In this document: positions 539 through 41,805 of the stretch, one piece after another
Layout: each line of letters opens with the position of its first letter
Position numbering within the stretch: position 1 is the stretch's first letter
Assembly (NCBI GenBank): GCA_946408075.1
Contig: CAMJQQ010000001.1
Span: forward strand, 139,790-203,789
DNA length: 64,000 nt
Source: an uncultured Candidatus Saccharibacteria bacterium
GTDB lineage: Bacteria > Patescibacteriota > Saccharimonadia > Saccharimonadales > Saccharimonadaceae
Direction: 5' to 3'
Made by a program: the position numbers and the translations under genes
The notes under the pieces: model-generated
The model's input: only the letters and a program-made list of their open reading frames with translations
What the model was told of the DNA's origin: nothing
Databases searched by the model: none

Positions 539-3500
539 TTAGCGCTTGCGGCGCCTGACGACGAAGGCTAAGAGAGCAGAGCTGACGCCCAATCCGCCGA
601 CGGATACTAAGATCTGATCGAGCGTGACTGGAATGAATGGAATCGGATAGTTTGGCTCTTCGCTCGGCATATACGGATCAATGTCGGTATCTGGCAAGCC
701 GCGCGTGTACTTATCGGTGTAGATAATATTCACCAGATGTACATCGCCCGACTCGTCGTCCGTGATAAACTCGAATTCGATTTCCGCAAAGTTTTCGTTG
801 CCGAAATCCAACTCATCAATCGGCACTGGCGTGTCCCAAATCGTACCGAACGCCGGACGGGCTGCCATCACGCTCGCCTGCTTCTCGAAGGTCAGATTTG
901 CGGAGCTGCTCGGATAAACCACGCCATCATATTCACCCCAATCGTCTGACTCGAGAATCATACCGTCGCGACGCATGCCGTAAACAATCAGGTCACTCTT
1001 GTCGAAGTCTTCGCCGTCATCTGTAAACTGCACGCGCGGCTTGTTCGAGGTCAAATATATCACCTCATCGAGCGGATAGAAAACGCCTTCATAATCATCA
1101 CGACCATCAAAGCCGGCGTAGGCCTCCGTCGGCGAAACGGAGTAGGCATAGATATCGGTGCCTTCCGGAATCGTCGGGCCAAATTCGTCGCCGACCGTAT
1201 CGTCGGGCGCGCGAGTCGGCATCGTATAGCCTCCAATGTTTTTATCTTCGACATAGGTGTTGCCCCAGATGAAGATGCGCTCCAACTTGTCATCGTTCGC
1301 AAAGGCCGCATTCTTCATGTCGGTAATCTTGTAATCAATCGTCGCCTCGACCAATTCGCCATCATCATAGAATGTTGCGCGCGGAATCGTTGCATTCGTG
1401 AATGTGCGCGGAACGTCAACCGTGCGCAGCTTTGGCATACCGCTAAATGCATAACCTTCCGAACCATCGAACAGAGCAGCGGTCAAATCGAATTCTTTGC
1501 TCGCATCGCCCATCGTCTCAAACGCGGTACCCTTGAACGCGCGCTGGCCAATCGTCACGACCTCTTCTTTGAGCTCTGGCGCCCAGTCAATCTTGCGCAA
1601 CTTTTCCGCATTCAAGAAGGCCTCCGTACCAATCGCGCGCATCGCCTTGTCGTCGCTCATGTCGACCCTCGTCAAATTTCGGCAATTTTCAAATGCGCCA
1701 TAAGAAATTCCAGGCAAATCCGTAATCGTCACCTTATTCATGCTCATATTCCAGAATTCCTGCTGACCCGCGCCGACGTTCGCGGCCAGGGCAGGGAGTG
1801 TTGCGGATTCAATAATCAGCTCATTTATCTTCGAGCCCCAGAAGAGCTGATGAATCAACTTGTTGTCGGTATTCGCAAAGCTTAAATCCGGCTTCAGCGT
1901 AACGGAATTATATTCAATGTCTTCCGGACCGGCGTTAAAAGCATCTTCGCCGATATGCGTGACCGATGCTGGAATCACAATGTCGTCCGTAATGTCGGCC
2001 GCATAGAATGCCGATTCATCAATATCGAGCAAGCCTTCGGGGAACTCGCTAATCTCCGCTTGTGCTTCTTGGAAAGCCTCAATGCCGATCGTCTTTAGGC
2101 TATCTGGCAAAACCACCTCGCCAACATCAGCCCGATAGAAAGCGTCTTCACCAATCGTTTCGAGCTCGTCAGGTAAGATAATCTGATCAATTTTCGCAGT
2201 CTGGAAAGTCGAAGGCGCAATCGTCTTCCAGTCCGTCGCACTTAAATCTACCTTCGCCGCCTCGAGTCCGTAGAAATAGGCGTAATCTTTGCCGCAATCC
2301 GTCGGATCGCCGCAGACTGATGATGCTTCAGTATAAGCATTGCCGTAAGTATCAAATCCGCCGAATGGCTCACCGGCATTCTCCGTGAAAGTAATCGTGC
2401 CTAGCTTGTGCTGGCCGTCGCCAAAACTCCAAACGAAAGTCCGGTGTGAATAATCAATCGAATATTGTGCAATGCTCGAATCATACAAATCGACATCGAT
2501 TGTTACATTATTCAAATTTGGCGTATCGAGCAGTACCTCTTCGTCCAACTGTTCAATCGTGCTCGGCAAAACTGCGTTATGAACATTGCTCTGATAGAAC
2601 GCCTGGCGCCCAATCGCCTTCAAATTCGGCAAATTGAGGTCGCCCGTAAAGCCTTTTTGTGCAAAGAAAGCATAGCTGCCAATTTCTTCGACCGTGCTCG
2701 GCAAGCTCTCGAGCGGAACCTTCTTCTTGTCCAAATCGAGCTCTGGATATTCTGGCGGCGTATGGTTCGAACTGGTATCATCGCTGACAATAGTGCCCCA
2801 AAATGCGTAATTACCAATCTTCTTCAAACCTTCCGGCAAGCTAATAGGATTCTCAATTTCCGCGCTCGTAAAGGCATAATCGCCAATCTCCGTAATCGTG
2901 CTCGGCAACTTCAGATTCTTAATCCTCGCACCATAGAAAGTACCGAGCGGAACTTTATTCCACTTCGTTGTGTCGGCCGAGAAGTTATCGACATAAATAC
3001 GGAAAAGATCCCAGTTACCAGCCGGCGGCGTCACGGATTTGCTCGAGAAGTAAAGATTCTTCAAGTGGTAGCGATATTTCATGCAGTTATTATTTTCCTT
3101 GAAGAGCCCATCCCTGACGTCCGGCCCAGACATGCCGTAATAGGTGTAGAGATTGCCGAGGAAGATATCATTCCAGCGACTGCCAAGAATTGCCTGGCCG
3201 TTCTTCTTGCCGAAAATATCGGTGTCAATGTTAATGTTTTGCAAATCGTAGTTACCAACGAACGCGCCATGCTCGATGCGCTCAATCGAATCATTGATCG
3301 TCAGTGATTTAATCTTCACGCCATAGAAGGCCGAAGGCCCAACGTAGCGCAGCTTCGGCAAATTCAAATGCGTAATTTCGAGGCCAGTATTAAATATGAA
3401 TGCCTGGGAGCCGATATACTCGATATTGGTCGGCAAATTCTCAAGGTCCAAATCTTCGCTATTCAATCTCCAGAGGAAAGCATTCGCGCCAATCCCTTTC

Positions 3501-5167
3501 AAAGTCGACGGCAGGCTCAGTTTCGTCGGTTCGGCGCCGCGCTCATCTTTACGCGTGATGCGATTGTAGCCGCTGCTGCCATAACCCATCGTGAGATATG
3601 GCGCACCAAAGGCCTGATAGCCGATAAACTCAAAACCTTCGCCGATATTAATTTCCTCCAGATATGGACCAAAATCCTCGAAATATTGTGGCGCGACGAT
3701 ATTTTTCGCACTCTGAATAATCGCCTCATCAATCGAGTTCTCGCTGCTAACCGAACTACGTTCTGGCGCGACATCATTTTCGTCATATGGCGCAACAAGA
3801 TTGAGCTTCTTGATGCTTGCCTCCGGATTCGGCGACAAATTATGTGCCGAAATATTGGCCGGGCCGTACGAAACGTAGCCACATCCGCCGCTAATCAGGA
3901 CAGAGAAAGGCATTGAAGAGTTCGACCAATCAGAATTAAAACCCTTTAGCGTCAGCGGATCGTAAGCGACCGTCACTTCTTCGAGTGGATTTGCCGCAAA
4001 AATCGCCGCGCTAACGTGCTTAATCGATTTTGGCAAATATATCTCCGTCAAATTGTTCTGCGCGAAGGCCATCATGTCGATAGAATCAATCTCTGCCAAG
4101 TCAATCGAATCAAGATGCGCATTGTAAAATGCAAGCGTTCCAATCTTGACATGTGTACCAGTGAAATCCAACGAGCCGAGATTCGTATTCGCAAAGGCTA
4201 AGTCCGTGATTTCTTCCAGTGCCGCGCCCATCGTCAGGCTCGTAATGCCGGAACCTTCGAAGGCGTACTGATCGATATGCTTGAGATTATTTGTATTTAG
4301 CGCCTGCGCCAACGCGGCCGTACCTCTAAAAGCGCCGCCATAAATCTTTTCTACGCCATCGCCGATCGTCAGACTTGTCAAACCCGCACAGCTACGACAA
4401 AAACCTTCTCCAACCTCGCTGGACTGAAAGATAATGCTTGTGACGTTTGTGTTTTCGAAGACCTGCCCACCGACGGTCTGGCTTGGCAAAATCGTAACTT
4501 CGCGATTCTGTGCATTGAGAGTAGCGTCCTTAAAGGCGCGCCAACCGAGATATTTAACCTTGTTTAGTCCATTAATCTTCAAACTGAGCCCCTCGAAAGC
4601 GCCCGCCTCGTACGAATAATCGTATCGGTAACCGTCACCGCAGCTACTCGCCGTGACGTTTTGATTGTCGGTAATTACGACGTCGTCGCCGAAACTCAAT
4701 TCGAGCTCGCCGCTATAAGAATCTAGGAGAGGTGCAAAGCTGCGAATTTGGAGCTTTGCTGCATTTGTCATGTCTATTTTTGCTAAACCATTAGGAATCG
4801 TGACCTCTGTTGGGTCGTCAAAGAGATTGTCGATAAAATATGTGTCGTAGTCGGCCAGTGACGGATCGCCAATTTTGCTGACTACCTCGCTGAATGACGG
4901 CACAACTAAGCTTGTCAGCCCAGCTGGCGCAGATTTAAAGCTAATTACTGGCGCCGTCGTCTCAATTAGCTCATTTTTGCCGCAGTAATCGTTCGGATTC
5001 GCCAAACGTGCACTCCGAATTGTTTTTACTTCGTATCCCCAGACGACACCATTGTCATCTGTAAAAGTGTTCGGCGATGCAGCATTCGCGCCTTGATAAA
5101 GTCCAAAGCACGCCAAAAAAGATGCCGCAAGAATGCCCAACTTCATTCTCTTGCTAAGCAAGTTCAT
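539..5167 (-). CDS. Giant surface protein with BspA-type leucine-rich repeats (1542 aa)
   Basis: Longest ORF in the window. It has an N-terminal signal peptide (MKLGILAASFLACFGLYQGANA) and many repeats of the pattern I..IG..AF....L..I.LP.SL..IG..AF (LRR_5/BspA style). The C-terminus is a TM helix plus an RRRKR tail. SD GGGAGAG lies upstream. Confidence 0.85.
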   Translation of the reverse strand: MNLLSKRMKLGILAASFLACFGLYQGANAASPNTFTDDNGVVWGYEVKTIRSARLANPNDYCGKNELIETTAPVISFKSAPAGLTSLVVPSFSEVVSKIGDPSLADYDTYFIDNLFDDPTEVTIPNGLAKIDMTNAAKLQIRSFAPLLDSYSGELELSFGDDVVITDNQNVTASSCGDGYRYDYSYEAGAFEGLSLKINGLNKVKYLGWRAFKDATLNAQNREVTILPSQTVGGQVFENTNVTSIIFQSSEVGEGFCRSCAGLTSLTIGDGVEKIYGGAFRGTAALAQALNTNNLKHIDQYAFEGSGITSLTMGAALEEITDLAFANTNLGSLDFTGTHVKIGTLAFYNAHLDSIDLAEIDSIDMMAFAQNNLTEIYLPKSIKHVSAAIFAANPLEEVTVAYDPLTLKGFNSDWSNSSMPFSVLISGGCGYVSYGPANISAHNLSPNPEASIKKLNLVAPYDENDVAPERSSVSSENSIDEAIIQSAKNIVAPQYFEDFGPYLEEINIGEGFEFIGYQAFGAPYLTMGYGSSGYNRITRKDERGAEPTKLSLPSTLKGIGANAFLWRLNSEDLDLENLPTNIEYIGSQAFIFNTGLEITHLNLPKLRYVGPSAFYGVKIKSLTINDSIERIEHGAFVGNYDLQNINIDTDIFGKKNGQAILGSRWNDIFLGNLYTYYGMSGPDVRDGLFKENNNCMKYRYHLKNLYFSSKSVTPPAGNWDLFRIYVDNFSADTTKWNKVPLGTFYGARIKNLKLPSTITEIGDYAFTSAEIENPISLPEGLKKIGNYAFWGTIVSDDTSSNHTPPEYPELDLDKKKVPLESLPSTVEEIGSYAFFAQKGFTGDLNLPNLKAIGRQAFYQSNVHNAVLPSTIEQLDEEVLLDTPNLNNVTIDVDLYDSSIAQYSIDYSHRTFVWSFGDGQHKLGTITFTENAGEPFGGFDTYGNAYTEASSVCGDPTDCGKDYAYFYGLEAAKVDLSATDWKTIAPSTFQTAKIDQIILPDELETIGEDAFYRADVGEVVLPDSLKTIGIEAFQEAQAEISEFPEGLLDIDESAFYAADITDDIVIPASVTHIGEDAFNAGPEDIEYNSVTLKPDLSFANTDNKLIHQLFWGSKINELIIESATLPALAANVGAGQQEFWNMSMNKVTITDLPGISYGAFENCRNLTRVDMSDDKAMRAIGTEAFLNAEKLRKIDWAPELKEEVVTIGQRAFKGTAFETMGDASKEFDLTAALFDGSEGYAFSGMPKLRTVDVPRTFTNATIPRATFYDDGELVEATIDYKITDMKNAAFANDDKLERIFIWGNTYVEDKNIGGYTMPTRAPDDTVGDEFGPTIPEGTDIYAYSVSPTEAYAGFDGRDDYEGVFYPLDEVIYLTSNKPRVQFTDDGEDFDKSDLIVYGMRRDGMILESDDWGEYDGVVYPSSSANLTFEKQASVMAARPAFGTIWDTPVPIDELDFGNENFAEIEFEFITDDESGDVHLVNIIYTDKYTRGLPDTDIDPYMPSEEPNYPIPFIPVTLDQILVSVGGLGVSSALLAFVVRRRKR

Positions 5168-5648: not shown

Positions 5649-5778
5649 AACTAAAGAGCCCTCCGCGGCTCTTTTTTGTTGCTTTTTCCGCAGCTTCGCA
5701 GCACGCCTTATCTTGCTCTTCGCACCCTCCCAAAAAACAACGCCCCGCGCCCCCGTATGTATTGTAATATTTACAACA

Positions 5779-5826
5779 TCGCTAGATATAGCGTAAAAAT
5801 CTGCATTGACACGCTATATATAGCGT
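5779..5826 (+). promoter_or_regulatory. Tandem NrdR-box-like palindromes overlapping a promoter
   Basis: Box 1 is TCGCTAGATATAGCGT (5779-5794). Box 2 is ACGCTATATATAGCGT (5811-5826), a perfect 16-bp palindrome. They match at 14/16 positions and their centres are 32 bp apart. Box 2 fills the spacer between TTGACA (5806-5811) and TATAAT (5828-5833). Confidence 0.6.
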
Positions 5827-5865
5827 TTATAATAAAAGCATAACCGCTATAAAACAAAGGGCAAC

Positions 5866-6300
5866 ATGAAAAACATTCTTTACTTTCAACCAAGCGACGC
5901 GACGAAATTTGACATTGAGCGATATGCGAAGTCGCTGAATCAATACGCAAAAATCTCGTCCGACGAAATCGAAAAGGCACTCAAACAGTTTGACTGCTTT
6001 GAGAATTTGCATGTCAGCCGCCTCGTGGAGTTAGGCGCTGCACTGATTGCGAAAAACGCCAATGAAGACAAAGCTAAAGAGTATTTTGAGTCGCACGACC
6101 AATACTTTGGTGGCAAATTTGAACGCCTTCGCCGCATCACGGGCTATCTAGTCGGCACGCTCGATCGCTGGAACGACGGCAAGAAAGCCGAGGAAAAGGC
6201 TCGCGTCAAACACTCCATCAACTCCGCCATTGACGACGCAGAACGCGCCGCCCGCCTTCAAGAGCAAGCTATCGCACATACGGTCGCCTACGCCGCCTAA
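5866..6300 (+). CDS. Stand-alone protein with a NrdD-type C-terminal glycyl-radical motif (144 aa)
   Basis: RRITGYLVGTLDRWNDGKKAEEKARVKH matches the C-terminal glycyl-radical signature of class III ribonucleotide reductase (R-[VI]-x-G-Y...W/F-N-x-G-K..E...R-V-x-H). There is no catalytic barrel and no Cys4 zinc site. The gene is preceded by NrdR-like boxes. Confidence 0.6.
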   Translation: MKNILYFQPSDATKFDIERYAKSLNQYAKISSDEIEKALKQFDCFENLHVSRLVELGAALIAKNANEDKAKEYFESHDQYFGGKFERLRRITGYLVGTLDRWNDGKKAEEKARVKHSINSAIDDAERAARLQEQAIAHTVAYAA

Positions 6301-6315
6301 AATCGCCCAACAAAA

Positions 6316-6335
6316 ATATGCCCCGCAGGGCATAT
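6316..6335. terminator. Bidirectional intrinsic terminator
   Basis: ATATGCCC-cgca-GGGCATAT is flanked by an A-run and a T-run. It sits between the convergent 5866..6300 (+) and 6339..8987 (-) genes. Confidence 0.7.
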
Positions 6336-6338
6336 TTT

Positions 6339-8987
6339 TTAATTCTCGACCACTACGCAAAGTGGCGTTAGCTGACGAGCCTGACCGAGTGGATTATCGG
6401 CAAACTTCGAAGCGAGCAATTCAGTCTCCTCTTCGCACGCTTTACCTAAGATGTTGCGACCAAGGTCATTCGAATCGATAATTACAACGCCTTCGAAATT
6501 GTCGCGCATCTTCTTCGGCAACTTGTCGCACTGCTCAATGAGCGAACGCAAATGCTCGGCGACTACGTCTGGATCCTTTGGTGGCAGCTTCGCGGAGACG
6601 TTTGCTGGATAGGCGGAGTATGAGGTCGGCCCATCGATTGCGCGCACATCTGCGCCAGCGGTATTATAGAAAACGCCCTTCTTACCAACTAGTTTCCCGG
6701 CGAAACCGGCCGCAGCAGCAAACCAAATGCGCGGTGCGCCGGCTTCTTGTATCGCCAACTGCATCGTAGCTGGATGACCAAGACCGATACCGGCCGGCGT
6801 CCTAATGACGAAGCGGCTCAAAATCTTTGCTGAAAGGCTCGGCTTCACATCCCAGATGAAGTATGAGCGACCCTGCATTGTAGCAATAATCTTCTCGCTG
6901 ATATAGAGCTGCCACTTCTTGCCATCGGCCTTCTTTGGCATATTCTTCGAGAACGCCACCAAATAATGCTCAATGAAGCTATCCATATCCGTATCGCGAC
7001 TCACGAGTTCAGTGCGCATTGGGTAGCGCGTGTAAACCTTGTGATTTACCTCGGAAGTAATGTCGGCATTTTTCTCGTTGTTCGGACCGTAGCCGAGCTC
7101 TTCTGGTTTTACGGTCTCTTTCTCGTCCTTCTTGTCGAAGAATTCGCGCAGCCACAACTCGACGTTAATAATGCGCCAGAAAGTCATCGAGCCAAAGCTG
7201 CTCTTATCTTTCTCGTTGAGCTTAAATTCGCGCAAGACCGCCATCTGGTCAAAGTATTTGCGATGTGCAAACTCATCAGAAACCAAAATCTTTTCCAAAT
7301 CCTTGTGAATCGAGCGGAACCAGTCAATCTGTGGCGTTGTAAAGCCAATTTTGTTACGACGCGCGCGAATCTTTTCCGGTAACAGGCCCTTCATACTGTC
7401 GCGCAAAATGCGTTTGTTCCAACCCTCGTGAATAATTGAATCGTCGTCGTAAGCGAACTGGAACTTCAAAAGCTCCTTGTCGATGAATGGCACGCGACCT
7501 TCAAGACCGAAATGCATCGTGTTGCGATCTTCGTAGCGGAGCAGGGAAGGCAAGCTTTGTTCAAAAATATCGTCAAGCAAGCGCATCTTGAGGTTATTGT
7601 ATTTAACCTTCATCTTTTCGTCGCCGTACTTGTTCGCAAACTCAGGATTCAAAAGCTCATTAATCGGTTTCGGCTTCTTCTGATTAATGCGACCGCGAAT
7701 TAGCTTGCGCATAATATCCATCGATTTAGACGTCTCGGCAGCCAAGCGCTTGTACTGCTTGCGAGATTTCAACTGATTTAGATAAACGCGATAGTATGGG
7801 TCGTAACCAGCCATCATCTCATCGGCACCCTGGCCATCAAGCAAAACAGTAATATACTTGCTAGCTTCGCGCATTACGGCGTACTGCGCATATGGGCCAG
7901 TACTGATTACCGGCTCTTCCTGTGTACGGACGAAGTCGGTCAAATCCTCAAGGAAACTCTGCGTTGTCGGTTTAATCTTGTGCGCCTTAATTTTGCCATG
8001 ATACTTATCAATCAAAGCGTCGACGTAAGCCTCTTCATCGTTACTCTCATTTGGGAACACGGCAGAGAAAGTATTCTGGCGCGAGCCAACCGTACTCATT
8101 TCTGCGCTATGCTTCTCGTCTTCGAGGTTCTTTGCAATCAATGCGGCAACCGAAGAGGAATCAAGGCCACCAGAAAGGGAAGTACCAACCGGAACTTCGC
8201 CTACGAGGCGCATACGCACGGCCTTATCGAGGCGCTTGCGGTATTCCTTGGCGACATCTTCGCTGTATTCCTTAGGATTCTTGGCCAATTCTTCCAGCTC
8301 TTGGCGCAACTTCGTAAACATCTTGCGCTTGGCACCCTTCTTCGAAATTGTCATCATTTCGCCAGGCATCAAGTGATAAATATTCGTAAAGAAAGTCTCG
8401 CGCTCATCGTCTTGGACGCGGAACTTCAAATAGCGGAAAATAATGCGATCGTTCGGCTCGGTCTTAACCTTGTCGGAGGCGAGCAAGGTTTTAATCTCGG
8501 ACGCGAACAACAATTTGCCGTCTTCTTGGTAGTAATAAACTGGTTTAATACCAAAATGATCGCGCGCTAAAGTAACTTCGCCATTCTTGCGGTCCAAAAT
8601 CGCCAAACCAAACATACCGTTCATCTTGTCGAAAGCTTTGTAGCCCCAATGAATGAAGGCTTCGAGCACGACCTCGGTGTCGGATTCAGTCTTAAACTTG
8701 AGTTTTGGGTTCTCGGCGAGCAGCTCCTCGCGCAATTCTTTATAGTTATAAACTTCGCCATTGTAGACGATTTCGTAGTTGCTGTCGTTGGCGGACTTCA
8801 TTGGCTGTGCGCCAGAAGCGATATCGATAATTGCCAGGCGACGATGAGCGAGGCCGACTTTTACTCCGTTCTTATCAAAAACAACTTTACCCTCACCATT
8901 CGGGCCGCGATGCGCCATGGCATCATTCATCTTATCTAGAATTTTCTCTGCGTCATCATAGCCGAAACAACCAGCAATTCCGCACAT
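6339..8987 (-). CDS. Asparagine-synthetase-family glutamine amidotransferase fused to a C-terminal CofE/F420-0:gamma-glutamyl-ligase-like domain (882 aa)
   Basis: The N-terminus MCGIAG supplies the Ntn Cys2 nucleophile, and the PP-loop SLSGGLDSS is present. The AsnB-like body ends near aa 615 (WRIINVELWLREFF). The C-terminal ~245 aa shows CofE-like blocks: YISEKIIATMQGR, LPPKDPDVVAEHLRSLIEQ, GVVIIDSNDLGR and ADNPLGQARQLTPLCVVV. SD GGAGGA and a TGATATAAT promoter lie upstream. Confidence 0.65.
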   Translation of the reverse strand: MCGIAGCFGYDDAEKILDKMNDAMAHRGPNGEGKVVFDKNGVKVGLAHRRLAIIDIASGAQPMKSANDSNYEIVYNGEVYNYKELREELLAENPKLKFKTESDTEVVLEAFIHWGYKAFDKMNGMFGLAILDRKNGEVTLARDHFGIKPVYYYQEDGKLLFASEIKTLLASDKVKTEPNDRIIFRYLKFRVQDDERETFFTNIYHLMPGEMMTISKKGAKRKMFTKLRQELEELAKNPKEYSEDVAKEYRKRLDKAVRMRLVGEVPVGTSLSGGLDSSSVAALIAKNLEDEKHSAEMSTVGSRQNTFSAVFPNESNDEEAYVDALIDKYHGKIKAHKIKPTTQSFLEDLTDFVRTQEEPVISTGPYAQYAVMREASKYITVLLDGQGADEMMAGYDPYYRVYLNQLKSRKQYKRLAAETSKSMDIMRKLIRGRINQKKPKPINELLNPEFANKYGDEKMKVKYNNLKMRLLDDIFEQSLPSLLRYEDRNTMHFGLEGRVPFIDKELLKFQFAYDDDSIIHEGWNKRILRDSMKGLLPEKIRARRNKIGFTTPQIDWFRSIHKDLEKILVSDEFAHRKYFDQMAVLREFKLNEKDKSSFGSMTFWRIINVELWLREFFDKKDEKETVKPEELGYGPNNEKNADITSEVNHKVYTRYPMRTELVSRDTDMDSFIEHYLVAFSKNMPKKADGKKWQLYISEKIIATMQGRSYFIWDVKPSLSAKILSRFVIRTPAGIGLGHPATMQLAIQEAGAPRIWFAAAAGFAGKLVGKKGVFYNTAGADVRAIDGPTSYSAYPANVSAKLPPKDPDVVAEHLRSLIEQCDKLPKKMRDNFEGVVIIDSNDLGRNILGKACEEETELLASKFADNPLGQARQLTPLCVVVEN

Positions 8988-25326: not shown

Positions 25327-26631
25327 ATGCTAGATATTACGTATATCAGAGCGAATCGTCAGAAAGTGGAGGACGCGATTCGGAATAAAGGCTACGAGGG
25401 CGAAATTGACCTCGGTGCCATTCTTTCGCTTGACGACGAGCGCAAGGCTCTGTCGCAGCAGATCGACAGCCTACGCCAGGAACGCAATCAAGTATCTGCG
25501 CAAATGAAGAACGGTAAACCAGACCAAGAGCTCATTGCTCGTGGTAAGGAATTGAAGTCGCAAATCTCAGAACTCGAGCCAAAGCTCGCCGAGGTCGAAG
25601 CGGAATATATCGCCAAGCTCAAGACTGTGCCAAATATTCCAGAAGACGACGTTCCGGTTGGTCTCTCCGAAGACGAAAATGAGGTTGCCGAGGTCATTGG
25701 CGAACCGACCAAGTTTGATTTTGAGCCAAAAAGTCACCACGAGATTTGTACAAGCCGCGGTTGGCTCGACAAGGAACGCGCCGCTAAGGTTACTGGCTCT
25801 CGCTTTGCCTACATTAAGGGTGACATGGTCAAGCTTCAGATGGCTATCGTAAACTTCGTCATGAACAGCCTCACTGACGAGAAGGTTATCAAGGAAATCA
25901 TCAAGAAGAACAAGCTCGACATTTCCGAGAAACCATTCACGCTCGTTTTGCCGCCACTCATGCTCCGTACGGACATGTATGATGCTATGGATCGCCTCGA
26001 ACCACGCGAAGATCGCTACAAAATCGAAGGCCAGGAACTCTGGCTCCAAGGTAGCGCTGAGCATGTTCTCGGCTCTATGCATCAGGGCGAAATTTTCAAA
26101 GAAGAAGAACTTCCAATCCGCTATCTCGGCTACGCTACCAGCTTCCGCGAAGAGGCTGGCACCTACGGCAAGGACATGGAAGGCATTATCCGCATGCACC
26201 AGTTCGACAAACTCGAAATGGAAAGCTTTAGCACGAAAGAAACCAGCCGCCAAGAGCACGAATTCTTCGTCGCGATCCAGCGCTGGCTCCTTGAGCAACT
26301 CGAATTGCCATACCGCGTCATCCGCAAATGTACCTATGACATCGGCAAACCGGACGCTCGCGGTATCGATATGGAAGTCTGGCTCCCAGGCCAGGGTAAG
26401 TATCGCGAAACTCATACAGCTGACTATATGACTGATTACCAATCTCGCCGTCTCGGCACGCGTGTTCGCCGCGAAAATGGCGAAGTCGAGTTGGTTCATA
26501 CCAACGACGCTACGGCTTTCGCGCTTGGACGGGCGATGGTAGCGGTCATCGAAAACTACCAGAACGAAGATATGACCATCCGCGTTCCGGAAGTATTGCG
26601 TAAATATATGGATGGCAAGGAGACCATATAA
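25327..26631 (+). CDS. serS: Seryl-tRNA synthetase
   Basis: The N-terminal coiled-coil arm and class II core are present (FRxE-like SFREEAG, GSAEHVL...). TGCTAAAAT lies 9 nt upstream of the ATG. Confidence 0.9.
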   Translation: MLDITYIRANRQKVEDAIRNKGYEGEIDLGAILSLDDERKALSQQIDSLRQERNQVSAQMKNGKPDQELIARGKELKSQISELEPKLAEVEAEYIAKLKTVPNIPEDDVPVGLSEDENEVAEVIGEPTKFDFEPKSHHEICTSRGWLDKERAAKVTGSRFAYIKGDMVKLQMAIVNFVMNSLTDEKVIKEIIKKNKLDISEKPFTLVLPPLMLRTDMYDAMDRLEPREDRYKIEGQELWLQGSAEHVLGSMHQGEIFKEEELPIRYLGYATSFREEAGTYGKDMEGIIRMHQFDKLEMESFSTKETSRQEHEFFVAIQRWLLEQLELPYRVIRKCTYDIGKPDARGIDMEVWLPGQGKYRETHTADYMTDYQSRRLGTRVRRENGEVELVHTNDATAFALGRAMVAVIENYQNEDMTIRVPEVLRKYMDGKETI

Positions 26632-26632
26632 T

Positions 26633-26986
26633 ATGATTGAAAATATTGACATTAGCGGCTCTAATTACAAAGTTGAAGAAAGCTTCAAAAAATATGTGCA
26701 GAAGCGCATCGGTAAACTCGATCGCCATCTTCCACGCAACAACCGCAAGGATCTCGTTGCTAAGGTTGTCGTCACCGAGGTAAACCGCGAACACGGCAAC
26801 AAGTATGAAATTTCCGTTACGCTCGACATTCCAGGCGGTAAAGTTCTCGCTGCAAAGGATGAGGCTCTTAACGTCTTTGCTGGTATTGATATTATCGAGG
26901 CAAAGCTCGACGGTCAGATTCGCCGTTTCAAAACTGAAAAAACTAATCACAAGAAAGGTGTCCTGGGGCGTTTGTTCAAGAAATAA
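26633..26986 (+). CDS. hpf: Ribosome hibernation factor, short HPF/RaiA form (117 aa)
   Basis: MIENIDISGSNYKVEESFKKYVQKRIGKLDRH is typical of the family. The SD AAGGAG lies inside the serS 3' end. The track ORF starts at 26612. Confidence 0.8.
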   Translation: MIENIDISGSNYKVEESFKKYVQKRIGKLDRHLPRNNRKDLVAKVVVTEVNREHGNKYEISVTLDIPGGKVLAAKDEALNVFAGIDIIEAKLDGQIRRFKTEKTNHKKGVLGRLFKK

Positions 26987-27004: not shown

Positions 27005-29905
27005 ATGAAAGAGAAGAGGTCAGAGCAGAAAAGGGTGGCAGAGAAGTCCGCTAAAGCGACGAAAAAGGTGCAGAAAACTCCAAAACAGCACAAAGAAAAG
27101 AAACCTACCGACAAACTTGCAGATAAGTCCGGCTTGACTATTGCATTGCAGCATATTTTTGGCGATGCGCAAAAACGTACTTTGCGCCGCCTTCGCAAGC
27201 GTGTTGACGAAATCAACAAGCTTAAAGATAAGTACTCCGAAATGACGGACGAGGAATTGCAGGAACAGACTGCAGTTCTCAAAAAGCGTCTCAAGAAGCT
27301 AAAGAAGCAGGCGCAGGCCAAGATCGCTGTCGAAAAAGTAAAGTCCGAAAAGAAGGGCAAGAAAGCAGAGAAAAAGAAGACCGACCAAAAGGCCGAACTC
27401 ACCGCTGCTGACGAAAAAGCTCTTGATTCGATTTTGCCGCAAGCTTTCGCGCTCGTTCGCGAGGCTTCCGATCGTGTCCTAAAGATGCGTCCGTTCGATG
27501 TTCAGCTCATCGGCGGCATCGTTTTGCACGAAGGCAATGTTGCTGAGATGAAAACTGGTGAAGGTAAAACTTTGGTTGCGGTTGCTCCGGCCTACCTCAA
27601 TGCTCTGACCGGCCGCGGTGTCCATGTGGTTACCGTTAACGATTATCTCGCGCAGCGCGATGCTGGCTGGAATGGTGAGCTCTATCATTTCCTTAGCATG
27701 ACTACCGGTTGTATTATTAACGAAGCTAGCTTCATGTACGACCCAGAGTACGAGAACGAAGAGCATGACGACCCTCGTTTCCGTCACCTCAAGCCATGTA
27801 CTCGCAAGGAAGCTTACAACTGTGATATTACCTATGGTACGAACAACGAATTTGGCTTCGATTATCTTCGCGATAACATGGTCAAGGATCCTCAGTATCT
27901 CCGCCAGCGCGAATTGAACTTCGCCATCGTGGATGAGGTCGACTCGATTCTTATTGATGAGGCTCGTACGCCATTGATTATTTCTGCTCCAGCTGGCGAC
28001 AACCCAGAGAGCTACTATCAGTTCGCCAAGGTTTGCGCTCAGCTCGCCGACGAAGACTACATTGTTGACGAAAAGCGCAAGACTGTCACTTTGACCGACG
28101 AAGGCGTCGAAAAGGTTCAGAAAATCCTCGGCGTCGATACTCTCTACTCGACCGACAATACCCGCCTCGTTTATCACCTCGAGCAGGCTCTCCGCGCCGA
28201 AACTCTCTTCAAGCGCGATAAGGATTATGTCGTCACGAACTCTGGCGAAGTTATTATCGTCGATGAGCATACCGGTCGTCTCATGAATGGCCGCCGCTAC
28301 AACGAAGGTCTCCATCAGGCTATCGAGGCTAAGGAAGCCGTCCAAGTGCGCCAAGAATCTATGACCCTCGCAACGATTTCCTTCCAGAACTTCTTCCGCC
28401 TCTACCACAAGCTTTCCGGTATGACCGGTACGGCCTTCACGGAAGCTGAAGAGTTCCAGCAGATCTATGCGCTCGACGTGGTTCAGATTCCACCGAACAA
28501 GCCGATTATTCGTGTCGACAAAGATGATCTTATTTTCCGCACCGAAGCGGCCAAGCTCAAGGCTGTCGCTGAAGAGGTCAAGAAATACCACAAGAAGGGT
28601 CAGCCGGTCCTGATCGGTTCCGACTCGATTGCGAACAACGAACGTATCGCCGCCTATCTTGAAAAAGAAGGCATTCCGTTTGAAATTTTGAACGCAAAGA
28701 ACAACGAGCGCGAGGCTGCCATCATCGAAAAAGCCGGCGAAAAGGGCGCAGTCACGCTCGCAACCAACATGGCTGGTCGTGGTACCGATATTAAGCTCGG
28801 CAAGGGTGTCAAAGAACTTGGCGGTCTCGTCGTGATTGGTACTGCTCGTCATGATTCCCGCCGCGTCGACAACCAGCTCCGCGGTCGTGGTGGCCGCCAG
28901 GGCGATCCAGGTACGACCCAGTTCTTCGTTAGCTGCGAAGATGACCTCATGCGCATCTTCCAGGGTGAACGCATTGGCTTCTTGATGCAGCGCCTCGGCC
29001 TCGACGAAGATACTCCAATCCGCAACAAATCTGTCAGCAAGACGCTTGAGTCTGCTCAGAAGCGCATTGAAGGTTTCAACTTCGACTCCCGCAAGAACGT
29101 TGTTCAGTATGATAACGTCATTAACCGCCACCGCAAGGTCGTCTACACGATGCGTCGCCGCATTCTCGATGGTGATAATATTCGCCCAGAAATCAGCCGC
29201 CTCTACAAAGACGAAATCGCCGAGCTTGTCCAGTTCAGCTCCCGCGTCAACAAGAACTTTGTCGCCAACTTCAAGCGTATCTTCGATCTCGACGAAGATT
29301 TGCTCGAATCGATTGGTCTCATGCGTAAAGAAAAAGACCGCTACAAGCTCGCCTTGGCTGCTGTCGAAGAGCTCTATTCCGACAAGGAAATGGAATTCGG
29401 CGAAGAAACCATGCGCAAGATTGAGCGTGAAGTCTATCTGAACGTTCTCGATACACTCTGGATGCAGCATCTTGAAAACATGCAGCACCTCCGCGAGGGT
29501 ATCCACTGGCGCAGCGTTGGTCAGCGCGATCCGCTCGTCGAGTATCGCTCCGAGTCTCAGAAGCTCTTTGACGGTCTCCAGCGCGCACTTCGCGAGGAAG
29601 TCATGCACATCATCCTCAACCTCCGCCAGCAAGACGTCGCCGAAGTTTCCGATGACAAGTATGAAACCGAGCTCACCAAGATGGCTGATTCTGCTACCGA
29701 AAAGGGCGTTAACGAAGTTTCTGCCGGTCCAAAGAACATGGACGACGAGTTCTCGAAAGACGAACATGGCGTCACGAAGGCTAGCGAAACGCCAAATCAT
29801 ATCGCAAAGGGTTCTGGCAAAAATACGAACCGCAACGCTCAGCGCAACGCGGCCCGCAAGAGCAAGAAAAAGGCTCGCCAAAACAAGAAGAGTGGCCGTC
29901 GCTAA
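27005..29905 (+). CDS. secA: Preprotein translocase ATPase SecA, with Lys-rich N-terminal extension and insertion
   Basis: MRPFDVQLIGGIVLHEGNVAEMKTGEGKT, DEVDSILIDEARTPLIIS and TNMAGRGTDIKLG are all present. TGCTATACT lies 6 nt upstream of the ATG. Confidence 0.95.
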   Translation: MKEKRSEQKRVAEKSAKATKKVQKTPKQHKEKKPTDKLADKSGLTIALQHIFGDAQKRTLRRLRKRVDEINKLKDKYSEMTDEELQEQTAVLKKRLKKLKKQAQAKIAVEKVKSEKKGKKAEKKKTDQKAELTAADEKALDSILPQAFALVREASDRVLKMRPFDVQLIGGIVLHEGNVAEMKTGEGKTLVAVAPAYLNALTGRGVHVVTVNDYLAQRDAGWNGELYHFLSMTTGCIINEASFMYDPEYENEEHDDPRFRHLKPCTRKEAYNCDITYGTNNEFGFDYLRDNMVKDPQYLRQRELNFAIVDEVDSILIDEARTPLIISAPAGDNPESYYQFAKVCAQLADEDYIVDEKRKTVTLTDEGVEKVQKILGVDTLYSTDNTRLVYHLEQALRAETLFKRDKDYVVTNSGEVIIVDEHTGRLMNGRRYNEGLHQAIEAKEAVQVRQESMTLATISFQNFFRLYHKLSGMTGTAFTEAEEFQQIYALDVVQIPPNKPIIRVDKDDLIFRTEAAKLKAVAEEVKKYHKKGQPVLIGSDSIANNERIAAYLEKEGIPFEILNAKNNEREAAIIEKAGEKGAVTLATNMAGRGTDIKLGKGVKELGGLVVIGTARHDSRRVDNQLRGRGGRQGDPGTTQFFVSCEDDLMRIFQGERIGFLMQRLGLDEDTPIRNKSVSKTLESAQKRIEGFNFDSRKNVVQYDNVINRHRKVVYTMRRRILDGDNIRPEISRLYKDEIAELVQFSSRVNKNFVANFKRIFDLDEDLLESIGLMRKEKDRYKLALAAVEELYSDKEMEFGEETMRKIEREVYLNVLDTLWMQHLENMQHLREGIHWRSVGQRDPLVEYRSESQKLFDGLQRALREEVMHIILNLRQQDVAEVSDDKYETELTKMADSATEKGVNEVSAGPKNMDDEFSKDEHGVTKASETPNHIAKGSGKNTNRNAQRNAARKSKKKARQNKKSGRR

Positions 29906-34967: not shown

Positions 34968-35003
34968 AACATAAGCAAATTTTCAAAGGAGGAAATTAGC
35001 AAA

Positions 35004-36914
35004 ATGGGTAAAATTATTGGTATTGACCTTGGTACGACTAACAGTGCCTTCGCCTACATGGTAGCGGGCAAGCCAGAAGTCATCACGAATGCCGAGGGGG
35101 ACCGCACGACGCCGTCTGTCGTTGCGCTCACAAAGAAGGGCGATCGCCTCGTTGGTAAGGTTGCTCAGCGCCAGCGTGTTACGAATCCAGAAAACACGAT
35201 TTATGGTATTAAGCGCCTCATTGGCCGCAAATTTAGCGACGACGAAGTTCAGCGCGACAAAGACATCATGCCATACAAGATTGTTAAGAAGGGCAATGCT
35301 GTCGGCGTAACGCTTGGCGACAAAGATTATACGCCAGAAGAAGTCTCCGCAATGATCTTGAGCAAAATCAAGGCTGATGCTGAAGCTTACCTCGGCGAAA
35401 AGGTCACCGAAGCTATCATTACGGTTCCTGCCTACTTTGACGATTCTCAGCGTCAAGCTACTAAGGATGCTGGTAAGATTGCCGGTCTCGAAGTTAAACG
35501 TATTATTAACGAGCCTACCGCAGCTGCTTTGGCTTATGGTCTCGAAAAGAAGGAAGACCAGAAGATTGTTGTCTTCGACCTTGGTGGCGGTACCTTCGAT
35601 GTTTCCGTCCTCGAGCTCGGCGATGGCGTCTTTGAAGTAAAGTCCACGAACGGTGATACGCACCTCGGTGGTGAAGATTTCGATAACATTATCGTTAACT
35701 ACATCCTCGACGACTTCAAGAAAGAAAACGGCATTGATCTCCGCAAAGATGCAGCCGCTATGCAGCGCATCAAGGATGAGGCCGAGAAGGCCAAGAAAGA
35801 GCTCAGCTCCGCAACCGAAACTGAAATCAATCTCCCATATATTACTGCTGATGCTGATGGTCCAAAGCACCTTGAGTTGACTTTGACTCGTGCCAAGCTC
35901 GAAGAGCTCGTCTCCGACCTCCTCGATCGCCTCGATGGTCCAGTTAAGAAAGCTTTGAAGGATGCCAAACTCAGCACTTCCGATATTAACGAAATCGTCA
36001 TGGTCGGTGGTATGACCCGCATGCCAGCCGTCGTCGAACGCGTTAAGAAAATCTTCGGCAAGGATCCAATGCAGGGCGTTAATCCGGACGAGGTTGTTGC
36101 GGTTGGTGCTGCAATTCAGGGCGGCGTGCTCGCCGGCGACGTTAAGGATGTTCTCCTCCTCGATGTCACTCCATTGACCCTCGGTATCGAGACTATGGGC
36201 GGCGTCCGTACTCCATTGATTGATCGCAACACTACGATTCCAACCAGCAAGTCCGAGGTCTTCTCGACCGCTAGCGACAATCAGCCACAGGTCGAAATTC
36301 ATGTCCTTCAGGGTGAACGCGAATTCGCTCGCGACAACAAGTCTCTCGGCCGCTTCATTCTCGACGGTATTGCTCCAGCTCCACGCGGCGTTCCGCAAAT
36401 CGAAGTTACCTTCAATCTCGACGCCAACGGTATCTTGAATGTTACCGCCAAGGATAAGGGTACCGGCAAAGAGCAGAGCATTACGATTCAGAACTCTGGC
36501 AACATGAGCAAAGAAGATATTGAAAAGGCCCAGAAGGATGCCGAGGCTCACGCCGCTGATGATAAGAAGCGCAAGGAAGCTGTTGACGCCAAGAACCATC
36601 TCGAAAACGCCATCTATCAGGCCGAAAAGATGCCATCCGAGTACAAGGATAAAATCTCCGACGAAGACAAGGATGCCATCAAAGAAGCCGTCAAGAAGGC
36701 TAAAGAGGCTCTCGAAGCCAACTCCGAAGACGCCGAAAAACTCGAAGAGGCTGCCAAGGAACTTAACGAGGCCATCATGCCAATCGGCGCCAAGTTGTAC
36801 CAGCAAGCAAGCGACGAAGCTGGCGACGGCGAAACCAAGACTCATCACGTCAAGTCTGACGACAACAAGTCTGACAACAAAGACGATTCCGTCGAAGGCG
36901 AAGTTGTTGACTAA
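35004..36914 (+). CDS. dnaK: Molecular chaperone DnaK (Hsp70)
   Basis: [17 protein letters not shown] and VGGMTRMP are present. The SD AAGGAGGA lies upstream. Confidence 0.97.
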
Positions 36915-36923
36915 AACAAAATT

Positions 36924-36946
36924 TCCCCCGCAAGGGGGATTTTTTG
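36924..36946 (+). terminator. dnaK intrinsic terminator
   Basis: TCCCCC-GCAA-GGGGGA followed by a T7 run. Confidence 0.85.
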
Positions 36947-36967
36947 TTGGCGTGCTACAATTAGGGC

Positions 36968-37393
36968 ATGGCATTACTGGACGCAGAAGACAAGCAAGCT
37001 TTGCGCGAATTAGCTTTCGGCAAAGTCGAAAAAGTTAAAGACAAAATTTGGCGCGCAATCCTCTTGATTGGTCTGCTGATTATTTTGGCTCTCGGCATAA
37101 TCACGGCCATTCGCCTTCGTCATGCAATCGACAATATCTGGCTGCTCATCGGAGTCTTTGCGGCTGGTGCTAGTCTTCTCGTAATCATTCTTTCTCTTCG
37201 TATTTTCTCTGCTTATCATGCGCAGCTCCGCAAATTCCTCCTGCCGCTGACGATTATTTGTATCTGCTATGTCGCCTTCGCGCTCTTCGCGCCATGCTAT
37301 AGCATTAAACGGGAAGTTCAGTGCGCCGAAGTACCTTGCCCGCAGGATGAAGTTACCCATGTTTCCTTCGCTGGTCTCGGTTTTAAGTATTGA
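36968..37393 (+). CDS. Small three-TM membrane protein (141 aa), unknown function
   Basis: TGCTACAAT lies 6 nt upstream of the ATG; hydrophobic helices are present. Confidence 0.55.
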   Translation: MALLDAEDKQALRELAFGKVEKVKDKIWRAILLIGLLIILALGIITAIRLRHAIDNIWLLIGVFAAGASLLVIILSLRIFSAYHAQLRKFLLPLTIICICYVAFALFAPCYSIKREVQCAEVPCPQDEVTHVSFAGLGFKY

Positions 37394-40100: not shown

Positions 40101-41372
40101 ATGGAGAGTGGGAATTCTATTTCTGACTCAAACGCCCCAGCGCCAACTACGCCCGAGGCAAACAAAGATAACGATTGGCGTAATAATGCCTTGGTAGTAA
40201 AAGCGCAAACGGCACCAAATACTCCGAACGCTCCGCGCGAACGCGGCGGTAGCGCTGGTGCTATTGGCTTGGCTTGCTTCTCGCTCTTGGTTGGTTGTTT
40301 TGGCATTATTCTCGCAATCGCAGCCATCTCGAAAACTTCGAATCTAACCCAAAACAGCGGCAACAATACGACCTCGGCAAACGGTTACTATAACGGCAAT
40401 TCGGTCGAATTTGAACAGACCTCCATCGCTGCAATCGTCGAAAAGGTTACGCCTGCCGTCGTCTCGATTATTACTTCTAGCACGCAAACTGGCGGCAGTC
40501 GCTGGAGCGGTCAGTATAGCTATGACGTTCAGTCTGCCGGCACTGGTATGATTGTTTCTAGTGATGGCTATATCCTGACGAACAAGCACGTCGTTGAGGG
40601 TGGTCACGCCTTCCAGGTTACGACTAGTGAAGGTGAAGCTTATGATAACGTAACGCTCGTCGCTGAAGATCCATTGAACGACGTCGCTTATCTCAAGATT
40701 AATGGCGTTTCCGATCTTCCGACCGTCACGCTTGGCGATTCGAAGACGATTGCGGTTGGCCAGCCAGTACTCGCAATCGGTAATGCACAAGGTCTCTATC
40801 AGAATACTGTGACGCAAGGTATCATTAGCGGGACGGGCCGTAGCCTCGATGCTGGTGATTCTGATGGCGGGAATCTGGAAACTTTGACCGATATGCTCCA
40901 GACTGATGCAGCGATTAATCCAGGCAACTCTGGCGGTCCGCTCGTCAATGCGAATGGTGATGTGATTGGCATCAATACTGCCGTTTCGACCGAAGGTCAG
41001 GGCATCGGTTTTGCGATTCCGATTTCTGCTACGCTCGGCATGCTTCATAATATTACCGACAATGGTGAAACGGGCCGCGCTTATGTAGGTGTGTCCTATA
41101 CTCAGATTACTCCAGAGATGGCGAAGGCCGAAAACCTCAGCTCTAAGACTGGCGCTCTCGTTAAGGCCGTCGTCGCGAATGGTCCAGGCGCTGCTGCTGG
41201 CATCAAAGAGCGCGACATTATTACGAAAGTAAACGGCACCGCTATTGGTCGCGCCGGCTCGGTTGCGACCTTGATTGGCGAGTACAAGCCAGGCGAAACG
41301 GTCGAATTGACGATTTTGCGTGGCGGTGAAGAACTCACGATTAGCGTCACACTTGCTGCCTACTCGGAATAA
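40101..41372 (+). CDS. HtrA/DegP-like trypsin-fold serine protease with PDZ domain, membrane-anchored
   Basis: GTGMIVSSDGYILTNKHVV (His), TDAAINPGNSGGPL (Ser), a C-terminal PDZ-like region and an N-terminal TM helix. Confidence 0.85.
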   Translation: MESGNSISDSNAPAPTTPEANKDNDWRNNALVVKAQTAPNTPNAPRERGGSAGAIGLACFSLLVGCFGIILAIAAISKTSNLTQNSGNNTTSANGYYNGNSVEFEQTSIAAIVEKVTPAVVSIITSSTQTGGSRWSGQYSYDVQSAGTGMIVSSDGYILTNKHVVEGGHAFQVTTSEGEAYDNVTLVAEDPLNDVAYLKINGVSDLPTVTLGDSKTIAVGQPVLAIGNAQGLYQNTVTQGIISGTGRSLDAGDSDGGNLETLTDMLQTDAAINPGNSGGPLVNANGDVIGINTAVSTEGQGIGFAIPISATLGMLHNITDNGETGRAYVGVSYTQITPEMAKAENLSSKTGALVKAVVANGPGAAAGIKERDIITKVNGTAIGRAGSVATLIGEYKPGETVELTILRGGEELTISVTLAAYSE

Positions 41373-41380
41373 GGCATGAC

Positions 41381-41412
41381 AAAAGCCCCAGTGTAATACT
41401 GGGGCTATTTTT
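41381..41412. terminator. Bidirectional terminator
   Basis: AGCCCCAGT-gtaat-ACTGGGGCT flanked by AAAA and TTTTT. Confidence 0.75.
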
Positions 41413-41433
41413 GCGGATTGTTTGCTCGGGTGA

Positions 41434-41805
41434 TTACTTGGCGGCTTCCCGCCGTTTGGTCTTGGCGGTCTTCGAGGCCTTTTTGTAGATGCGTGCAAGC
41501 TCGAGGATGAGCTCGTTCGCCTGCTTGAACTTTTTGCTTTTATCGCACTCGTAGTAGGCTGCCAGCAGCTTGGGCTCCGGCCTCTCGTCCGAATAACTGA
41601 ACAGACCAAGTTTCGTAAGTTCGTTCAGCTCAGTGAGGATTTCATCGATCAATGCGTTGGGGTTTGCGAAGATCACTTCCTTGTCGGCATCCCGCAGCAG
41701 GCTGATGAGTCTGTGATACATCAGTGTTCCCTTCGCGGTTCTGATGCGTTTGATTCTCGTTTCGTATTCGCTTCTAACTATGACGACTCGTTCGCTAGTT
41801 TTCAT
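41434..41805 (-). CDS. Hypothetical basic cytoplasmic protein (123 aa)
   Basis: The SD AAAGGATG lies upstream. I recognised no motif. It has a Lys/Arg-rich C-terminal tail (KKASKTAKTKRREAAK). Confidence 0.5.
   Translation of the reverse strand: MKTSERVVIVRSEYETRIKRIRTAKGTLMYHRLISLLRDADKEVIFANPNALIDEILTELNELTKLGLFSYSDERPEPKLLAAYYECDKSKKFKQANELILELARIYKKASKTAKTKRREAAK

Follow-up and report, generated by a model that had tools for sequence, protein, structure and literature searches.

The question raised by this locus is what use a bacterium could have for the radical-bearing end of an anaerobic ribonucleotide reductase (RNR) on a protein of its own. The window, i.e., the whole stretch of 64,000 nucleotides analyzed here, derives from an uncultured Candidatus Saccharibacteria bacterium and harbors a 144-aa open reading frame (ORF), the product of which is called here the mini-protein and its gene the mini gene. 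Oxygen cleaves glycyl radical enzymes irreversibly, and host-associated Saccharibacteria, the genomes of which are tiny, inhabit the mouth, gut, rumen, and similar niches in which oxygen fluctuates. A sequence-only reading of the same DNA had recognized in the ORF the glycyl-radical signature of NrdD, the class III (anaerobic) RNR, and had likened its layout to that of GrcA/YfiD, the small spare-part protein of pyruvate formate-lyase (PFL). The follow-up analysis puts the mini-protein forward as the strongest candidate to date for a spare part of the anaerobic RNR. On balance, we favor the reading that it acts in trans as a glycyl-radical tail, which would be activated by NrdG and would restore NrdD that has been cleaved by oxygen.

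Spare parts have been described for formate lyases only, and whether other glycyl radical enzymes possess them is regarded as open (PMC13450708, a review of June 2026; PMC8683613). Surveys of the RNR family describe split class II enzymes and no split or spare class III tail (PMC9669993). The literature searched described neither a split class III RNR nor a class III spare part, in agreement with the earlier statement that no characterized RNR equivalent of GrcA was known.

Domain organization and conservation of the mini-protein

Similarity of the mini-protein to a known family is confined to residues 84–118, which correspond to the extreme C-terminus of NrdD. The Pfam model NRDD (PF13597) aligned residues 85–116 with profile positions 533–562 of 562 (E-value 1.1e-7), with a score of 31.4 bits that lies above the gathering score of 26.2 bits. 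The NCBIfam NrdD equivalog models (including the TIGR02487 family) were matched over their last ~33 positions only, with scores of 31–42 bits, far under the cut-offs of 326–764. Residues 706–738 of the Prevotella copri NrdD in PDB entry 8p23 aligned with residues 84–116 of the mini-protein. The glycyl radical motif of NrdD, R-x-x-G-Y...(W/F)N.GK...RVKH, was found to be present, and its core is the RITGY of NrdD type as against the RVSGY of PFL type. The Pfam Gly_radical family (PF01228) was not matched at E-values up to 10, the hits obtained being NRDD and a chance match to BBE. The profile search proposed with the sequence-only reading thus places the protein at the NrdD C-terminus and confirms the signature recognized there. 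The ORF does not end with that signature as had been stated, since 28 more residues follow it (SINSAIDDAERAARLQEQAIAHTVAYAA). No curated model covers stand-alone NrdD tails.

The α/β barrel of NrdD with its finger-loop cysteine is absent from the mini-protein, as judged with the Pfam and NCBIfam profiles. The Cys4 zinc ribbon is likewise absent, no CxxC pairs occur across the family, and the single cysteine of the window protein (C44) occupies a position that is not conserved. The lack of both barrel and zinc ribbon had already been pointed out from the sequence and is upheld by the short span of the profile match. Lacking barrel, finger-loop cysteine, and zinc ribbon, the mini-protein cannot act as a reductase on its own.

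The N-terminal ~85 residues, earlier described as an unrelated helical region, are predicted to form an α/β domain. In an AlphaFold2 model of the mini-protein built on a 28-sequence family alignment, residues 1–80 were predicted confidently, with a predicted local distance difference test score (pLDDT) of 82–93 and the topology β-α-α-β-α-α. When this model was compared with the PDB using Foldseek, the best 22 matches were all ATP-cone proteins, with E-values of 0.04–2. The best of them was E. coli NrdR (9fxk; probability 0.99, E-value 0.04), and others included the class III RNRs 8p28 and 9d3x (P. copri and S. thermophilus), the ATP-cone NrdB 5olk, and class Ia R1. The Pfam ATP-cone family (PF03477) gave no match to the mini-protein at E-values up to 10, and hhalign of the family N-terminus against the cones of Saccharibacteria NrdDs gave no signal (probability 2.4%). 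A rough alignment showed a conserved YFxPSD in place of the canonical nucleotide-binding motif KR(D/N)G. Hence, the domain would amount to a degenerate cone at most, and its assignment to an ATP-cone-like fold, which comes from a predicted model, is marginal.

In the same model, the radical tail had a pLDDT mostly below 55; it is therefore probably flexible when the protein is alone. A folded N-terminal domain combined with an exposed tail of low confidence would suit a substrate of the activase. Taken as a whole, the succession of predicted cone, tail, and C-terminal extension looks like an NrdD from which the barrel and the zinc ribbon have been removed.

A search of 5.8 billion proteins identified 1,964 related clusters (clustered at 90% identity). 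The top 120 clusters comprise proteins of 141–190 aa with 67–100% identity, and those carrying a name all belong to Candidatus Saccharibacteria; an exhaustive search of the representatives extended the family down to 40% identity. On this sequence evidence, the family belongs to host-associated Candidatus Saccharibacteria and is also phage-borne. Gly93, the presumed radical residue, does not vary in members with an overall identity as low as 40%, nor do 19 other positions; Tyr94 and most of FERLRRITGYLVG..RWND.K.AEE..RVKH are, like Gly93, invariant in the family. Comparison with six relatives gave a ratio of nonsynonymous to synonymous substitution rates (dN/dS) of ~0.1 overall and 0.03–0.10 in the tail, with synonymous sites saturated. 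These substitution patterns indicate that the mini gene is under strong purifying selection. A 2,550-aa protein (P0145) retrieved with 20 matched stretches was rejected as spurious, being a low-complexity tandem repeat.

NrdR-type operators, transcription unit, and the parent NrdD

NrdR sites consist of two 16-bp boxes with conserved C4, A6, A8, T9, T11, and G13, separated by a linker of 15–16 bp (PMC13584703). Tandem palindromes resembling NrdR boxes, 32 bp apart, had been noticed upstream of the mini gene from the sequence. Both were found to carry all six conserved positions; their starts are 32 bp apart, and the linker (5795–5810) measures 16 bp. At ≤3 mismatches, the two boxes are the only matches in the window, where 0.27 would be expected by chance. 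The second box indeed occupies the spacer between the -35 and -10 hexamers, as had been remarked, and also overlaps the last base of the -35 hexamer (Table 1). Agreeing with all published sequence criteria, the two boxes are candidate NrdR operators.

A survey of 1.0 Mb of Saccharibacteria DNA revealed 27 box pairs, 10 of them upstream of the mini gene and 17 upstream of nrdD, with none elsewhere in that DNA. As the same tandem boxes occur at these two genes only, the mini gene would be placed in the same very small regulon as nrdDG; the proposed scan for the palindrome upstream of other nrd genes thus led to 17 nrdD promoters. In the relatives, the boxes of a pair are spaced 32–33 bp from start to start. 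One box always lies inside the -35/-10 spacer of a near-consensus promoter, for both the mini gene and nrdD, and the partner box is situated upstream of the -35 hexamer in the former case and downstream of the -10 hexamer in the latter. In Saccharibacteria, the boxes often have G at position 3 and C at position 14 (ACGC...GCGT).

Just upstream of box 1 is a different palindrome, (G)TTGTAA-N3-TTACAA(C). With ≤1 mismatch, TTGTAA-N3-TTACAA was found 128–158 bp upstream of 15 Saccharibacteria nrdD start codons and of one further mini gene (L001); instances include L051 7686, L052 7677, L063 6917, and L039 7709. It is also present at 16 other places in the 1.0 Mb; hence, it is not nrd-specific and may be the site of a second, broader regulator.

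The parent system was sought by scanning GTDB species genomes for mini genes and NrdD, and the counts given refer to the matches listed. At least 19 full-length mini genes were found, all in metagenome-assembled genomes of Saccharibacteria or Candidatus Nanosyncoccus, the listed ones originating from ruminant and human guts. The matches listed also included more than 30 NrdD genes of Saccharibacteria. They code for proteins of 780–828 aa with an ATP-cone, the full NRDD profile (positions 2–562 of 562), a zinc ribbon, and a tail of their own, and nrdG is placed directly downstream. In one relative (L018), an NrdR homolog (Zn_ribbon_NrdR plus ATP-cone) that is 38% identical to E. coli NrdR is encoded ~9 kb from the mini gene. 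The nrdD with its own tail, nrdG, and nrdR, which the sequence-only reading had asked to be looked for, are accordingly present in the lineage, i.e., in relatives of this bacterium.

The tail of the mini-protein is nearly identical to those of the Saccharibacteria NrdDs. The sequence FERLRRITGYLVG(T/S)L(D/E)RWND(G/A)K.AEE..RVKH is common to the mini-protein and 30+ Saccharibacteria NrdDs, and both contain FERL, as against FERI in Firmicutes. Saccharibacteria NrdDs continue for 40–70 aa past VKH, whereas Firmicutes NrdDs stop within ~12 aa; the mini-protein shares this post-VKH extension with the Saccharibacteria NrdDs, and distant and phage-borne family members retain an NrdD-like GQYTxxEK extension. 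Among the matches listed, assembly JAZUOZ01 has both a mini-protein (L021) and an intact nrdDG (L051), and the rarer variant GSLERWND is found in the tails of both. In 23 loci, the mini gene was never located within 10 kb of nrdD.

Saccharibacteria NrdDs share 53–58% identity with Firmicutes NrdDs, which fits the horizontal acquisition of nrdD reported for mammal-associated Saccharibacteria (McLean et al., 2020, PMC7427843). The same work reports NrdD as the reductase of these mammal-associated groups (PMC7427843), and the Saccharibacteria loci sampled showed no other RNR. NrdD may be the sole RNR of host-associated Saccharibacteria.

The mini gene forms a self-contained, monocistronic transcription unit. 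Near-consensus promoters equivalent to that of the window were found upstream of the mini gene in 16 relatives, and the position of the ribosome-binding site is occupied in relatives by AAAGGA or GGAGG. The terminator hairpin behind the gene has a folding energy of -14.7 kcal/mol and a z-score of -5.1, and none of 200 shuffled sequences folded as well. This hairpin is common to the mini gene and a convergent asnB-like gene that ends at 6339. The neighborhoods of the mini genes differ among relatives. The features of the locus are compiled in Table 1.

Table 1. Features of the mini gene locus (window coordinates) and examples of viral orphan tail ORFs (coordinates of the respective contigs)
Feature	Position	Strand	Remarks
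Terminator hairpin	5653–5674		End of the upstream gene
Palindrome (G)TTGTAA-N3-TTACAA(C)	5762..5776	.	Just upstream of box 1
NrdR-type box 1, TCGCTAGATATAGCGT	5779..5794	.	16-bp palindrome, six conserved positions present
Promoter, sigma-70 type	5806..5833	+	TTGACA-16 nt-TATAAT; 12/12 hexamer matches
NrdR-type box 2, ACGCTATATATAGCGT	5811..5826	.	Perfect palindrome; occupies the -35/-10 spacer
Ribosome-binding-site-like AAAGGG	5856..5861	+	4 nt ahead of ATG; read from the sequence
Mini-protein coding sequence	5866..6300	+	144-aa ORF, stop codon included
N-terminal domain, aa 1–80	5866..6105	+	Predicted ATP-cone-like fold
NrdD glycyl-radical tail, aa 84–118, KFERLRRITGYLVGTLDRWNDGKKAEEKARVKHSI	6115..6219	+	Profile and PDB matches
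Codon of presumed radical glycine G93	6142–6144	+	
C-terminal extension, aa 119–144	6220..6297	+	Predicted helix over aa 124–143
Terminator hairpin of the mini gene	6312..6339	.	12-bp stem, CGCA loop, 3' arm ending in a U run
Viral orphan tail ORF (L100)	4737–5138		IMG/VR
Viral orphan tail ORF (L103)	4950–5144		IMG/VR
Viral orphan tail ORF (L109)	3819–4082		IMG/VR

The asnB-like neighbor (6339–8987, minus strand) codes for an 882-aa protein with an asparagine synthase region (GATase and Asn_synthase, aa 43–614) and an additional C-terminal extension of ~270 aa. On the other side, a 1,542-aa protein (539–5167, minus strand) combines many leucine-rich-repeat-like units with a signal peptide and a membrane anchor at its C-terminus (...LLAFVVRRRKR); it is probably a surface adhesin of the epibiont. 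The window also contains very long antisense ORFs on the minus strand (34983–36974, 27479–29881, 46298–48694, 25567–26652, and 40344–41609). Among them are ORFs of 800 aa opposite secA, of 798 aa opposite pheT, and of 663 aa opposite a 636-aa plus-strand ORF, the last one matching Pfam NAD-GH (PF10712). They look like an effect of codon usage and not like real genes.

Split NrdDs, orphan tails, and phage-borne copies

Outside Saccharibacteria, the NrdD tail was also found on separate polypeptides. In Schwartzia sp. (L074 508–3813), a 756-aa NrdD stops after the zinc ribbon (profile positions 1–538 of 562), and a separate 95-aa ORF corresponding to profile positions 532–562 is followed by nrdG. 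The same break, with tail ORFs of ~50 aa, was observed in Oscillospiraceae (L060 2590–5046, L066 2435–4945, and L081 7528–10123), and nrdG comes after the split tail ORFs where it was seen. In Selenomonas ruminantium (L079 9283–10078), a 98-aa tail ORF is organized in an operon with nrdG, and no NrdD body is present within 9 kb of it. Orphan NrdD-tail ORFs of Firmicutes measure 86–137 aa and occur at this locus and at L037 1491–2537 (Mitsuokella), L045, L062, L070, L073, L076, and L083; some are located directly upstream of an nrdG-like activase, and no NrdD body was found within the fetched 1.5–10 kb. They begin with a small β-rich segment, e.g., ...VVVTVDG..EI..YI...LDYxL.P.KFERIRRITGYL. Near the orphan and split tail ORFs of Firmicutes, a search for NrdR boxes returned isolated, weak single boxes only. 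If organisms with a split NrdD have working RNRs, then a tail supplied in trans can function, and the gene arrangements imply that the radical loop of NrdD may be a modular, exchangeable element.

Similar to the bacterial genomes, viral contigs of IMG/VR were found to carry intact homologs of the mini-protein (136–148 aa, 45–59% identity) with intact tails. These homologs are encoded 1.3–2 kb from a large terminase (phrog_2, E-value 2e-31) on viral contigs of 80–86 kb, and a NinG/Rap nuclease is encoded nearby; the hosts of the phage contigs are assumed. The phage homologs have no NrdR boxes, and neither nrdD nor nrdG is present within 5 kb. Many further viral contigs (L099–L139) contain stand-alone NrdD-tail ORFs of 46–133 aa with no NrdD body within 5 kb (examples in Table 1).

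The viral contigs showed some additional arrangements. Copies of the mini-protein in L108 (4995–5261) and L132 (4995–5270) are truncated at or just past the radical glycine, ending with ...FERLRRIGE and ...FERLRRITGKTQ, respectively, before the stop; they could be frameshifts, pseudogenes, or assembly errors. NrdD genes on the viral contigs L093–L098 and L126–L130 are split into several segments, as expected for introns, inteins, or insertions of homing endonucleases. In L099, an NrdD body is located downstream of the tail ORF.

Proposed function and comparison with known systems

If the mini-protein restores cleaved NrdD, the events could be pictured as follows. A shortage of deoxynucleoside triphosphates (dNTPs), e.g., following cleavage of NrdD by oxygen at the radical glycine, would cause NrdR to leave its operators, and nrdDG and the mini gene would be derepressed together. 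Using S-adenosylmethionine, NrdG would then remove a hydrogen from Gly93 in the exposed, flexible tail, and the radical-bearing tail would enter the barrel of an NrdD molecule that had lost its own. With the glycyl radical placed beside the finger-loop cysteine, nucleotide reduction could resume. The cone-like domain would probably dock on NrdD, cone to cone, or help to recruit NrdG. A likely origin of the gene would be a duplicated nrdD that suffered an internal deletion of barrel and zinc ribbon and kept the promoter region, the cone, and the tail.

A more far-reaching version of this proposal, to which we give an even chance, is that the mini-protein represents the first spare-part system of an RNR. 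In that version, a degenerate ATP-cone would dock, the NrdD tail would be replaceable, the gene would be switched on through NrdR as dNTPs fall and would have been adopted by Saccharibacteria phages as an auxiliary metabolic gene, and the family would fall within a wider class of trans-acting NrdD tails. This wider class, undescribed so far, would also include the split NrdDs and the orphan tail ORFs of gut Firmicutes and phages.

Several points weigh against a spare radical tail. Installation of the radical and rescue of NrdD are pure inference. The Cys4 zinc site is needed for radical generation in the NrdDs of phage T4 and E. coli, and the mini-protein has no such site; since split NrdDs leave the zinc site on the body, a zinc site on another chain than that of the glycine may suffice. 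The folded ATP-cone-like domain of the model suggests a role in regulation or oligomerization and would be needless for a simple spare part, and the ATP-cone assignment itself stems from a predicted model with marginal Foldseek E-values and no support from sequence profiles. Among the matches listed, co-occurrence with the parent enzyme in the same genome was observed in a single assembly (JAZUOZ01). Within the 64-kb window, nrdD, nrdG, and nrdR were not found, either by comparing 30 large ORFs with Pfam or by tblastn searches in which NrdD and NrdG of Saccharibacteria and the NrdR of E. coli served as queries; their presence in this genome is therefore deduced from the relatives.

The folded N-terminal domain would be explained more readily if the mini-protein were a regulator or decoy, its cone pairing with the ATP-cone of NrdD or NrdR and its tail competing for NrdG, so that RNR activity, radical loading, or NrdR repression would be tuned. 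The best structural matches of the domain are indeed the ATP-cones of NrdR and RNRs, ATP-cones of class III RNRs dimerize on binding dATP (PMC12662201), and a place in the NrdR-type regulon would allow a feedback loop. However, the 35-residue tail is NrdD-like and invariant well past the glycine, which is more constraint than a decoy seems to need, the canonical KR nucleotide-binding residues of the cone have been lost, and carriage of the gene by phages, which need dNTPs, is hard to reconcile with an inhibitor. We consider such a role unlikely, though it is the main rival of a spare tail. Far less probable is an obligate small subunit of a split NrdD, serving as the sole source of the glycyl radical in a genome with a tail-less enzyme; the sequence-only reading had raised this as a detached piece of NrdD. 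Splits of this kind do exist in Selenomonadales and Oscillospiraceae, an orphan tail stands beside nrdG in Selenomonas ruminantium, and no nrdD from the genome in question was among those recovered. Yet all of the 30+ listed Saccharibacteria NrdDs, that of JAZUOZ01 included, have complete tails, and the mini gene keeps its distance from nrdD in all 23 loci. Because their NrdD retains its own tail, the split-subunit explanation was rejected for Saccharibacteria, the true splits being those of Firmicutes.

That the gene is a non-functional leftover of an internally deleted nrdD is hardly credible in view of ~1,960 clusters (90% identity) with conserved length, a dN/dS of ~0.1 at saturated synonymous sites, the conservation of promoter, operators, and terminator, and the independent retention of the gene in phage genomes. 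An nrdD-like promoter, a cone-like N-terminus, and an NrdD tail with its extension do have the appearance of an NrdD without a barrel. A decaying remnant, the possibility that the sequence-only reading had named against itself, was rejected on the cluster and dN/dS data.

As a spare radical tail, the family would be a concrete candidate for a replaceable part of the enzyme on which anaerobes rely for all their DNA precursors. All components of the proposed system, i.e., the mini-protein, NrdD, NrdG, and NrdR boxes, are defined, and the split NrdDs offer natural controls. If the proposal is true, a cheap repair part of 144 aa could matter for the survival of Saccharibacteria; phages, to judge from the copies that they carry, would make use of it as well, and an exchangeable radical loop of NrdD would be relevant to both the mechanism and the engineering of RNRs.

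Among described systems, E. coli GrcA/YfiD and its phage T4 version Y06I are likewise small stand-alone copies of the C-terminal glycyl-radical segment of a parent enzyme. The anatomy fits the likeness to GrcA/YfiD drawn from the sequence, and the phage-borne copies, which parallel Y06I, strengthen it. As with GrcA/YfiD, an intact parent enzyme and its activase occur alongside the mini-protein (here in JAZUOZ01, the parent being NrdD and not PFL), and by analogy the presumed logic is the replacement of an oxygen-cleaved radical domain. In contrast to that family (IPR011140), of which it is not a member, the parent of the mini-protein is a class III RNR, PF01228 is not matched, the homologous segment amounts to only ~35 aa plus the extension, and the gene would be regulated through NrdR-type boxes. 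The N-terminal half of GrcA is disordered, whereas that of the mini-protein is predicted to be folded and ATP-cone-like. With NrdD itself, the mini-protein shares a nearly identical tail (FERLRRITGYLVG...RVKH), the post-VKH extension, the architecture of promoter and operators, and, by prediction, a cone-like N-terminus; it has neither the ten-stranded barrel of ~600 aa with its finger-loop cysteine nor the Cys4 zinc ribbon. The split class II enzyme NrdJa/NrdJb of Pseudomonas aeruginosa provides a precedent for a C-terminal RNR module on a separate polypeptide (PMC9669993), and the split NrdDs of Firmicutes are its class III counterpart; the Saccharibacteria NrdD, however, is unsplit, and the mini-protein is an extra copy. 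As for the NrdR regulon, the boxes of the mini gene are like those upstream of the nrdDG of the lineage and overlap the promoter as those do, but the gene that they would control codes for neither a reductase, an activase, nor a redoxin.

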